Source: Staphylococcus phage S6
Sequence record: LC680885.1
DNA: 64,000 bases
Direction: 5' to 3' (one strand)
The notes under the pieces are model-generated. The model was not told the DNA's origin, made no database searches, and saw only the letters and a list, made by a program, of their open reading frames with translations. A program made the translations under genes and the position numbers. This document shows, piece by piece, positions 38,440 through 39,420 of this stretch (positions are counted from its first letter, which is position 1; the number at the start of each line of letters is the position of its first letter).

Positions 38440-39420
38440 GTACTACAACTATATAAAATAGATCATATGAATACGTATGATCTTAATTAAAATATTACGG
38501 TCATTACCATATAATTGCGGATCCATTGAGCCTAGGCTTTGACGAAGCATAGAGCTCATTGGATCCTATCATTATATTGTCGGTTTAATATTATATTTAT
38601 CTATCTTCTTAAATTTTGATTATTATATGAATTATATTTTATTATAAAGCTATATCTTATTAAATTAAGATAATCATATGAATACGTATGATTTAAATTT
38701 ATGTATTAGCAAAATAATTTTTCCAAAATTATTTTCTTATTTGATAGTATCTCCTTCTGCAGGGAATCTTTTCATAAAGTTTCCCGCAGATGGAATCTAA
38801 TCAAACATGTTTGTTTATAATAAAATAAGATTTTTAACTTAAAGTTTTTCTATAATTAATTTATAGGCATTATATGAATACGTATAATGATTATTTATTT
38901 ATGTGTAGAAATATGTCCTGATGCTTGTCAGCATCTGGGCTTATTTCTCGATTATATACTGCAGCTCGTGCCGCTTCCTTATTACTTAGGAAGCCGCCAA
39001 GCTGCATTGTATATATTTGTTGGTTTAAGTTAAAAGTTTTAATTCGATTTAAAGTTATTCTATAATTAATTTATAGACATTATATGAATACGTATAATGA
39101 AATAATTATTTATAATCATTGCCATAAATAAATCTCCACGTTCCAACTCCTTCTTTAATATTAAAGAAGGAGGAACACAGGATATCTATTTATCTTTGTT
39201 TAAATCGAAGTTATTCTCTCTATTAGTTATTCTATAATTAGCTTTATAGACATTATATGAATACGTATAATGATTTTAGAATCATAACCTATTCATTATA
39301 TTTACTCTGCTTTATTTTCGGTGTAATGATTCCTTCATTACACTCCCAGCTGGGACCATTCTTCTCTCGTTCGAAGACCACTTACTCTTTCATCAGGTCC
39401 CAGCTAAAATAAAGCTTTAA
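38440..39420 (+). repeat. tandem array of five ~200-bp units: a conserved AT-rich module (TTCTATAATTAATTTATAGACATTATATGAATACGTATAATGA and shorter variants) followed by a unit-specific GC-rich hairpin core
   Basis: Conserved modules at 38464-38480, 38675-38691, 38848-38890, 39058-39100 and 39230-39273. Cores at 38519-38566, ~38750-38800, 38917-39006 (nested stems), 39140-39176 (perfect palindrome CTCCTTCTTTAAT/ATTAAAGAAGGAG) and 39309-39415. No ORF longer than 60 codons on either strand. Confidence 0.7.
39309..39415 (+). ncRNA. candidate structured ncRNA closed by 10-nt terminal inverted repeats (retron msr/msd-like architecture)
   Basis: a1 GCTTTATTTT (39309-18) is the reverse complement of a2 AAAATAAAGC (39406-15). 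Inside lie a 9-bp hairpin GTGTAATGA/TCATTACAC (39321-43) and a 10-bp stem AGCTGGGACC/GGTCCCAGCT (39348-57 / 39396-405) around a 38-nt loop. All helices nest. GC content is far above background. Confidence 0.4.

Follow-up and report, generated by a model that had tools for sequence, protein, structure and literature searches.

The 64-kb window analysed here, the whole stretch of DNA under study, comes from Staphylococcus phage S6 (LC680885.1), whose sequence in the region of interest is 98.9% identical to that of the Staphylococcus jumbo phage PALS_2. A gap at positions 38279-39555 separates a small open reading frame (ORF; 37946-38278) from the gene for a reverse transcriptase (RT). Within this gap lies an array of five tandem structured units (38365-39447, plus strand), which is followed after 109 nt, on the same strand, by the RT start at 39556. 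This array and its relation to the RT are the subject of the present study.

The earlier note on this DNA had described five modules, each followed by a different structured GC-rich segment, in a non-coding gap upstream of the RT gene, and this arrangement is indeed present. The 14-mer ATATGAATACGTAT occurs five times, exact and always on the plus strand, at 38465, 38676, 38872, 39082 and 39255, so spaced that successive modules are 211, 196, 210 and 173 nt apart. GC content peaks at 0.43, 0.38, 0.48, 0.35 and 0.50 and lies at 0.10-0.22 in between. No sixth exact copy of the 14-mer was found in the 64 kb; at up to two mismatches the window holds 12 matches against 2.75 expected, a number reached in none of 100 shuffles, and a covariance model of the module recovered only the five sites. 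The extent first proposed for the array, 38440-39420, was too small, since the units reach from about 38365 (start of unit 1) to 39447 (end of unit 5) and flanking elements extend to 39523. The offset from module to structured core, thought to be constant at about 30 nt, measured 27-64 nt.

The gap had also been called free of ORFs, and for ORFs of at least 60 aa it is; it does hold seven ORFs of 30-51 aa. Small proteins encoded by the array were considered and rejected, as these ORFs match near-identical phages only and are absent from phages SA1 and Machias and from two further related loci (L010 and L011). No frame of the variable structured segments, which we call payloads, holds a conserved ORF. 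The record of phage Madawaska (L002, 3246-3833) annotates three coding sequences of 36-40 aa for a "hypothetical protein", with ribosome-binding sites, inside its array; these are conserved among near-identical phages only and are probably mis-annotations. ARAGORN identified neither tRNA nor tmRNA in the window, in agreement with the earlier failure to fold any core into a cloverleaf, and no Rfam family was assigned to the region at gathering score, with chance-level hairpin noise alone at E-values up to 10.

Units, hairpins and payloads

Retron msr-msd RNAs are primed from the 2'-OH of a G, and their copying begins at the base beside the 3' arm, a2. Folding the array unit by unit showed the 5' arm of each unit (a1) pairing over a long range with its 3' arm (a2), so as to close the unit. 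From the 5' end, a1 is followed by a G, a pair of conserved hairpins, one long variable hairpin and then a2, which is the order of elements in a retron msr-msd RNA. All five units lie on the plus strand. Unit 1 (38365-38608) consists of a1 at 38365-38390, a putative priming G at 38391, an extended msr-like stem at 38396-38460, hairpin B at 38460-38483, the payload at 38484-38582, a junction G at 38583 and a2 at 38584-38608. A 39-nt stretch of the msr-like stem of this unit (38411-38449) has no counterpart in phage MarsHill, which is left with a simpler, canonical hairpin A; either the other phages gained the stretch or MarsHill lost it. Unit 2 (38635-38827) has a1 at 38635-38648, the G at 38649, hairpin A at 38653-38672, hairpin B at 38673-38692, the payload at 38695-38812, the junction G at 38813 and a2 at 38814-38827. 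The same elements of unit 3 (38826-39041) fall at 38826-38843 (a1), 38844 (G), 38849-38867 (hairpin A), 38868-38889 (hairpin B), 38891-39022 (payload, with two hairpins), 39023 (junction G) and 39024-39041 (a2). Those of unit 4 (39043-39209) are at 39043-39053, 39054, 39059-39077, 39078-39099, 39101-39197, 39198 and 39199-39209, in the same order, and the payload here includes the palindrome CTCCTTCTTTAAT at 39147-39172. Unit 5 (39211-39447) comprises a1 at 39211-39225, the G at 39226, hairpin A at 39231-39250, hairpin B at 39251-39272, a payload with a three-helix core at 39274-39431, the junction G at 39432 and a2 at 39433-39447.

The G that is 3'-adjacent to a1 is unpaired in every unit and stands in an AAAG or UUAG context. 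The a1 stem ends exactly at this G in units 1-4, and a conserved (U)UUG junction lies 5'-adjacent to every a2. Pairing between the arms is specific to the unit. The cognate a1/a2 duplex had the best energy in the matrix for units 2-5 of this phage, SA1 and Machias, and across 42 units the cognate arms were 94% paired, compared with 60% for non-cognate arms of the same genome. In unit 3 the cognate duplex has a predicted free energy (dG) of -15.2, against -1.3 to -9.1 when the a1 arms of other units are placed on the unit 3 a2 zone. The arms also differ between phages in a compensatory manner. Those of unit 2 form a perfect duplex of 14 bp, TTTATTATAAA/TTTATAATAAA (also UUUAUUAUAAA/UUUAUAAUAAA), while the orthologous arms read GTTGTTGTAAA/TTTACAATAAC (GUUGUUGUAAA/UUUACAAUAAC) in SA1 and ACTATTATAAA/TTTATAATAGT (ACUAUUAUAAA/UUUAUAAUAGU) in Machias, both with compensatory changes relative to the window. 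The unit 4 arms, UUCGAUUUAAA/UUUAAAUCGAA in the window, are replaced in SA1 by the compensated pair AATGAATTAAA/TTTAATTCATT (AAUGAAUUAAA/UUUAAUUCAUU), and two pairs of the unit 1 duplex show compensatory changes in phage LY01. For unit 3, RNAalifold recovered the a1/a2 duplex and both hairpins across nine phages.

The unconstrained global minimum free energy (MFE) structure of the 1157-nt RNA likewise consists of five separately closed units and a terminator. In this structure units 2-5 are enclosed by an outer long-range helix of 18 bp on the plus strand (5' arm 38616-38633, 3' arm 39460-39478). All 18 pairs form in seven of seven close phages. In SA1, Machias, L010 and L011 the sequences of the arms are unrelated and the helix still persists, with a dG of -15 to -20 compared with -6 to -10 for shuffled arms. 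It may be a processing stalk of the RNase III type.

The earlier note had read the module as a promoter with two TATAAT hexamers. Both hexamers are there in units 3-5, while units 1 and 2 carry TATGAT, and the alignment of the module copies of this phage and nine relatives gives the hexamers another meaning: they are the arms of hairpins, and they are lost while pairing is kept (GATCATA/TATGATC, GAATATA/TATATTC, AATTTCA/TGAAATT). The second hexamer pairs with its partner to make the stem of hairpin B, as in CAUUAUAUG-AAUA-CGUAUAAUG, and the first, upstream hexamer sits in hairpin A, whose arms vary as CUAUAA...UUAUAG, AUCUUA...UAAGAU and UUCCUU...AAGGAA. The top of hairpin B is invariant, with A-U, U.G and G-C pairs below a NAUA loop (AUG-NAUA-CGU). 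Its lower stem is compensated, as seen in GAUCAUA/UAUGAUC, AAUCAUA/UAUGAUU, GAAUAUA/UAUAUUC (SA1), AAUUUCA/UGAAAUU and, in Machias, AAAUUUUA/UAAAAUUU (in DNA form AAATTTTA/TAAAATTT). Pairing in the two hairpins reaches 98.1% over 34 distinct copies of the module, compared with 82.0% when partners are shuffled, and in controls in which the partner was slid pairing fell to 25-59%. Compensatory stem changes in related phages, which had been named as a check on the array, are thus found: double changes occur at 12 of the 16 module pairs, a count that none of 500 shuffles reached.

Two features of hairpin B bear on what the structured molecule is and what reads it. Its U.G pair is invariant in 34 of 34 copies, and because it would become a C-A mismatch on the opposite strand, the structured molecule is RNA of the plus strand. 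Its apical motif is the same within each genome and different between RT lineages, as would be expected if one trans-acting factor, in the simplest case the RT, read all the units. From the sequence comparisons we infer that hairpins A and B are msr-like stem-loops on which the RT would dock.

The hairpins quoted in the earlier note can all be read in the sequence, and the payloads that contain them are strongly structured. Their RNA folds have z-scores of -4.8, -5.4, -8.2, -5.8 and -9.1 for units 1-5, with none of 200 dinucleotide shuffles folding as well. The reverse complements, representing the complementary DNA (cDNA) and folded with DNA parameters, are equally structured (z -4.7 to -9.6). 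In SA1 and Machias the payloads have z-scores of -1.9 to -6.0, eight of nine being at or below -4.1. Payload divergence outpaces module divergence: identity to LY01 is 77-90% for payloads and 90-96% for modules, and identity to SA1 (units 2-5) is 58-67% and 83-96%, respectively. The unit 5 payload is the best conserved between lineages. Among units 3-5 the modules share 71-96% identity; the payloads show no similarity among themselves or to the rest of the 64-kb window beyond chance matches of 12-13 nt.

Several origins and uses of the payloads were considered and set aside. Searches of 50,697 phage records with the payloads returned orthologous loci only, and with nothing similar in the rest of the window this argues against copies of, or antisense to, other phage sequence. 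A diversity-generating retroelement (DGR) was rejected because the payloads form no template/variable repeat pair in the window; Korn et al. likewise reported no Avd, template repeat (TR), variable repeat (VR) or initiation of mutagenic homing (IMH) element. The window payloads (38484-39434) contain the GC-rich palindromic hexamers GGATCC (twice), CCTAGG, GAGCTC, CTGCAG (twice) and CAGCTG, seven in all against 1.8 expected (3 of 1000 shuffles), and this enrichment is absent from the payloads of SA1 and Machias, which speaks against restriction-site decoys as a general explanation. In the window at large (63 kb), GC-only tetramer palindromes are rare (GGCC 2, GCGC 0, CGCG 0 and CCGG 12, with about 24 of each expected, by our estimate, from base composition), a strong signature resembling restriction avoidance. 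The Staphylococcus aureus Chi heptamer GAAGCGG occurs at 2286 (minus), 7191 (plus), 38971 (minus), 49104 (plus) and 58400 (minus), five times against 0.35 expected and in none of 100 shuffles at that number. The copy at 38971 belongs to the unit 3 payload, is read on the would-be cDNA strand and has been retained in the six closest phages; the first payload of the metagenomic contig L012 likewise has GAAGCGG on the would-be cDNA strand. A Chi decoy was nevertheless rejected, because with five copies in 64 kb the placement of one of them inside the payloads is a chance event of about 5%.

Transcription, the reverse transcriptase and related loci

The AR9-like phages, including the Staphylococcus jumbo phages considered here, transcribe with their own RNA polymerases from other promoter motifs, and the early-promoter motif of MarsHill and AR9 is TATATTAT (Korn et al.). 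Its core is contained in TTTAAATATATATTATA-N3-ATGAAG. One site in the array region matches the early-promoter consensus of this phage well; it is located upstream of unit 1 at 38343-38368 on the plus strand (TTTAAATATATATAATA-TTA-ATGAAG), with a predicted start at about 38364-38367, and the motif stands at the equivalent position in SA1, Machias, L010 and L011. Elsewhere in the window, TTTAAATATATATTATA-N3-ATGA(A/G)G, the probable early promoter, is found upstream of genes at 2557, 43916, 51371 and 54251 on the plus strand and at 5614, 11949, 13598 and 22671 on the minus strand; the form ending in ATGAAG recurs at six of these sites (2557, 11949, 13598, 43916, 51371 and 54251). A start at ATGAAG would make the unit 1 a1 arm the 5' end of the RNA, where GAAGAUAG... 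pairs with ...CUAUCUUC (38601-38608). Several of the other copies (e.g. 54251, 11949, 13598 and 51371) are directly followed by a perfect hairpin, so that early transcripts may begin with 5' stem-loops. Between the array and the RT gene there is a terminator-like hairpin (39482-39513) followed by a T-run, together occupying 39482-39523 on the plus strand. It is the only terminator-like site in 38200-39600, where 0.2 would be expected; Machias has an annotated terminator at the equivalent place, and L010 and L011 have a similar hairpin. The five independent transcripts that had been suggested earlier do not agree with one promoter match, one terminator and a unit 1 a1 arm at the predicted 5' end, and from these sequence signals we favour a single early transcript of about 1.15 kb over the array. 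At the other side of the gap, directly 3' of the stop codon of the upstream ORF, AAGGTAATGGCA...TGTCATTACCTT forms a hairpin at 38285-38322 with a T-run below the criterion of the terminator scan; it is probably the end of the preceding transcription unit.

The RT gene (39556-41058, plus strand; alternative ATG at 39544) encodes 500 aa, with a poorly conserved N-terminal extension of about 200 aa. The translation contains the motifs NADYH, YADD and ITG (NAxxH and (V/I)TG in retron RTs), which are largely conserved in its homologues, the catalytic YADD being kept in all of them. PADLOC gave retron RT_II-A at 2.7e-39, and 25 of 25 among the matches listed (of 34 families) were retron RT models. 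NCBIfam gave retron_St85_RT at 9.8e-41 and a group II RT model at 4e-15. The best sequence matches in the PDB are retron RTs of the St85/type I-A family including Ec78 and Ec83 (1e-18 to 6e-13), with a group II RT at 6e-5. An AlphaFold2 model of the RT (predicted local distance difference test score, pLDDT, 77) has its top target-normalised TM-scores, 0.64-0.74, with Eco7, Ec78 and Ec83, which are type I-A retron RTs; Eco2 and Ec86 come next, ahead of group II, DRT2, DRT9 and DGR RTs. The nearest bacterial homologues belong to canonical retron loci (RT with an SMC-like ATPase and HNH; phosphoribosyltransferase, PRTase, with RT) that have single upstream gaps of about 200 nt. By its sequence and its modelled fold, the enzyme is a retron-type RT. 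A group II intron-encoded RT was rejected, as Rfam finds no intron RNA at the locus and the group II models score far below the retron models. At 63679-63821 on the plus strand the window does give a match to the group II intron domains D1-D4 (RF02004, 44.5 bits, E 2.7e-06), which suggests a group II intron separate from the RT locus. A defence RT of the DRT/UG kind was rejected as well: the listed PADLOC matches are all retron RT models, and DRT2, DRT9 and Abi-P2 resemble its modelled fold less closely.

Immediately after the RT stop codon comes a second ORF of 274 aa (41060-41884, plus strand), which we term the partner. With 29-43% identity, it adjoins the RT in every Staphylococcus jumbo phage as well as in L010, L011 and L016. 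It has no match in Pfam, PADLOC, NCBIfam or PHROGs, and a profile search of 1.84 billion proteins yielded five representatives, all in the same phage family. Its AlphaFold2 model is all-helical, with a pLDDT of 50, and too poor for a structure search.

The layout of an array followed by an RT is repeated in 12 related loci. Over the region, UFV_DC4, Madawaska, MarsHill, LY01 and SA1 are 66.8-96% identical to the window; PB50, AH12 and Machias can be aligned over 35-43% of the query only, at about 70-72% identity. Close relatives and the metagenomic locus L018, with RT identities of 86-93%, have five units with the apical motif AUG-NAUA-CGU, as does SA1 (RT identity 61%). Machias (RT identity 54%), PB50 and AH12 (L004, L008 and L009) share this motif and have four units; the orthologue of unit 4, the unit with the palindrome, is absent from all three, indicating that whole units are gained or lost. 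Three units are found both in L010 (RT identity 45%), with AUG-NNAG-CGU, and in L011 (52% over 74% of the query), with variant loops near AUG-NAUA-CGU. The most divergent case, contig L012 (3377-5000; RT identity 38%), has about eight units in a 1.6-kb gap, a hairpin of the form AAG-UUUC-UU and a different gene neighbourhood in which the RT is followed by a protein of 587 aa unrelated to the 274-aa partner; despite its different hairpin it keeps the a1-G ... G-a2 junctions and GC-rich hairpin payloads. No further relatives were found in IMG/VR, and scans of metagenomes and GTDB genomes added one close and two distant loci. The family is rare in public data, at about 15 proteins.

A probable retron-type array and its alternatives

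Taken together, these results make it probable that the gap holds a tandem array of five retron-type non-coding RNAs (ncRNAs) of the msr-msd kind, which would be substrates of the downstream retron-type RT. The retron features that computation can address were all found: the RT, an adjacent ncRNA, a1/a2 closure, the unpaired G, msr stem-loops and an msd hairpin. The suggestion in the earlier note that RT-associated ncRNAs of the retron type lie here is thereby supported by anatomy, covariation, RT family and comparative data. As we picture it, one RNA would be made from the phage early promoter at about 38343-38368 to the hairpin and T-run at 39482-39523. Its units are predicted, with the support of covariation, to fold separately, because each a1 pairs only with its own a2. 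The RT would dock on hairpins A and B through the invariant AUG-NAUA-CGU top, as their concerted evolution with the RT lineage suggests. By analogy with retrons, the unpaired G after a1 (38391, 38649, 38844, 39054 and 39226) would supply the 2'-OH, and the RT would copy leftwards from the G preceding a2 through the payload, giving five different single-stranded DNAs (ssDNAs) of about 90-160 nt. Engineered msr-msd arrays on one transcript do work with one retron RT, which argues that such a mechanism is feasible.

Several points weigh against this interpretation. The evidence of structure is all predictive, and much of the covariation comes from paralogues and close phages, so that the events are not all independent. 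The whole-array covariation test, made on seven close phages, used a structure derived from the window sequence itself; it gave 20 compensatory pairs against 7.3 +/- 1.9 in shuffled and 0-6 in slid controls, mostly in payload helices. The RT scores 139.9 bits, below the NCBIfam retron cutoff of 235, and its N-terminal domain of about 200 aa is unexplained. In the usual retron operon the ncRNA and the RT are co-transcribed, whereas here a terminator separates the two; no recognisable effector is present, and the partner protein is an orphan. Finally, canonical retrons have one ncRNA per RT.

The alternative that best survives, though we judge it unlikely, is that the units act as RNAs only and are never reverse-transcribed, serving as RT-binding regulators, protein sponges or decoy small RNAs in which a1/a2 pairing insulates folding. 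All of the direct evidence does concern RNA structure, the terminator sets the array apart from the RT gene, and the payload hairpins fold on either strand, so that the sequence demands no DNA product. Against this, the array always adjoins a retron-type RT, down to 38% RT identity, the apical motif of hairpin B changes along with the RT lineage, the a1-G/G-a2 priming geometry is maintained where sequences are unrelated, and YADD is kept in every RT homologue.

A non-retron mechanism resembling DRT2, DRT9 or DRT3, with protein or 3'-OH priming, template jumping, concatemers and no 2'-5' branch, appears to us improbable. In its favour, DRT loci too have a structured ncRNA upstream of the RT, retron RTs do not usually carry the extra N-terminal domain, and the predicted fold does match DRT2 and DRT9 (E 6e-10 to 1e-7). 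Retron RTs are nonetheless clearly closest by both sequence and fold, as reflected in the PADLOC models and in the NAxxH and (V/I)TG motifs, and an a1/a2 duplex with an adjacent unpaired G is a retron hallmark. In addition, the payloads are without the conserved ORF looked for in every frame.

We give still less credence to the proposal that each module is the promoter of its own small RNA, making five transcription units. A TTTATA-17-TATAAT arrangement is matched at 10 of 12 positions in units 3-5 and at 9 of 12 in unit 2, and yet the unit 1 module has no such match and sigma-70-like matches are not enriched in the region (18 against 13.0 +/- 3.3). The hexamers mutate in orthologues and paralogues while pairing persists, and in L010 and L012 the hairpins are kept with unrelated sequence. 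The phage's early-promoter consensus appears once, upstream of unit 1, AR9-like phages have polymerases of their own that use other promoter motifs (Korn et al.), and a start inside a module would cost each RNA its a1 arm and its G. That the units are selfish or neutral tandem duplications, similar to miniature inverted-repeat transposable elements (MITEs) or repetitive extragenic palindromic (REP) sequences and with no function tied to the RT, is hardly credible: the identity among the unit 3-5 modules does suggest recent duplication or gene conversion, but no copy exists elsewhere in the 64 kb or in other phages, compensatory change maintains pairing and the array has stayed in place while the RT diverged to 38% identity.

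Relation to known systems and significance

Retrons are known as bacterial defence modules composed of one RNA and one RT, and the production of DNA inside cells for genome editing builds on them. By RT, the closest bacterial retrons to the phage locus are those of type I-A (the Ec78/Eco7, Ec83 and St85 family), with which it shares NAxxH, YADD and (V/I)TG. Like them, it has an ncRNA upstream on the same strand, a1/a2 closure, an unpaired G at the end of a1, msr stem-loops followed by a long msd hairpin and a tightly linked downstream gene. Unlike them, it combines its RT with five ncRNA units instead of one (relatives have 3 to about 8), is carried by lytic jumbo phages and not by bacteria or prophages, encodes an RT extended N-terminally by a domain of about 200 aa, and lacks PtuA/PtuB or any other known effector, having the orphan helical partner in that place. 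Its predicted phage-type early promoter, the terminator before the RT gene and the outer helix around units 2-5 are further differences. What sets it apart from known retrons is the multiplicity of units, the virulent jumbo-phage host, the RT architecture and the lack of a known effector. DRT2, DRT3 and DRT9 also have an RT gene preceded by a structured ncRNA (the template in DRTs), but they belong to the UG/Abi RT clade, have a single ncRNA and do not show the anatomy of a1/a2 plus a branching G.

The nearest parallel to the array is synthetic. Multitrons are engineered msr-msd arrays on one transcript, used with one retron RT for multiplex editing (PMC10370050), and like the phage array they consist of tandem msr-msd units, each with its own template, served by a single retron RT. 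Multitrons are built from identical Eco1 scaffolds with designed donors, whereas the phage array is natural and conserved and has unit-specific a1/a2 arms; and its payload hairpins, unlike such donors, have no detectable homology to any target in the 64-kb window or the phage records. For the same locus in sister phages, Korn et al. (2020/2021) described the MarsHill RT, gp206, as retron-like, noted that its N-terminal domain measures about 200 aa and proposed the 1,200-bp gap upstream as the place of the retroelement ncRNA. They assumed a single ncRNA, stated that no effector is associated, and described no repeats, units, structures, covariation or partner ORF; the paper on DC4 repeats their view of the RT and the gap. 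In a full-text literature search, whose coverage was incomplete, we came across no report of retron ncRNAs arranged in tandem, either in nature or in phages.

As to what the array does, early expression, a lytic host, fast-evolving structured payloads and variable unit number together suggest a role in an arms race. We speculate that the products most likely serve as decoys or sensors in the contest between phage and host or in competition between phages, or act jointly with the partner protein. A bolder and quite tentative proposal is that of a natural multiplex retron, in which one RT would convert an early polycistronic RNA into a small library of different structured ssDNAs, acting as decoys or sensors that neutralise host immunity or rival phages, with 3 to about 8 fast-evolving cassettes per phage; retron chemistry would then be put to an offensive use on the side of the phage.

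The array offers a concrete explanation for the RT and the 1.2-kb gap that every Staphylococcus jumbo-phage genome paper has remarked on. If the retron-type reading is true, retron chemistry has been multiplexed in nature, with the a1/a2 arms acting as "addresses" that stop neighbouring units from mis-pairing. The array would also provide a ready scaffold for multiplex RT-DNA, with a compact msr module of 45 nt, short orthogonal a1/a2 arms and an outer helix. For the phages themselves, it would mean that virulent viruses use retron chemistry early in infection, and it would raise the question of what five small DNAs do for the virus.

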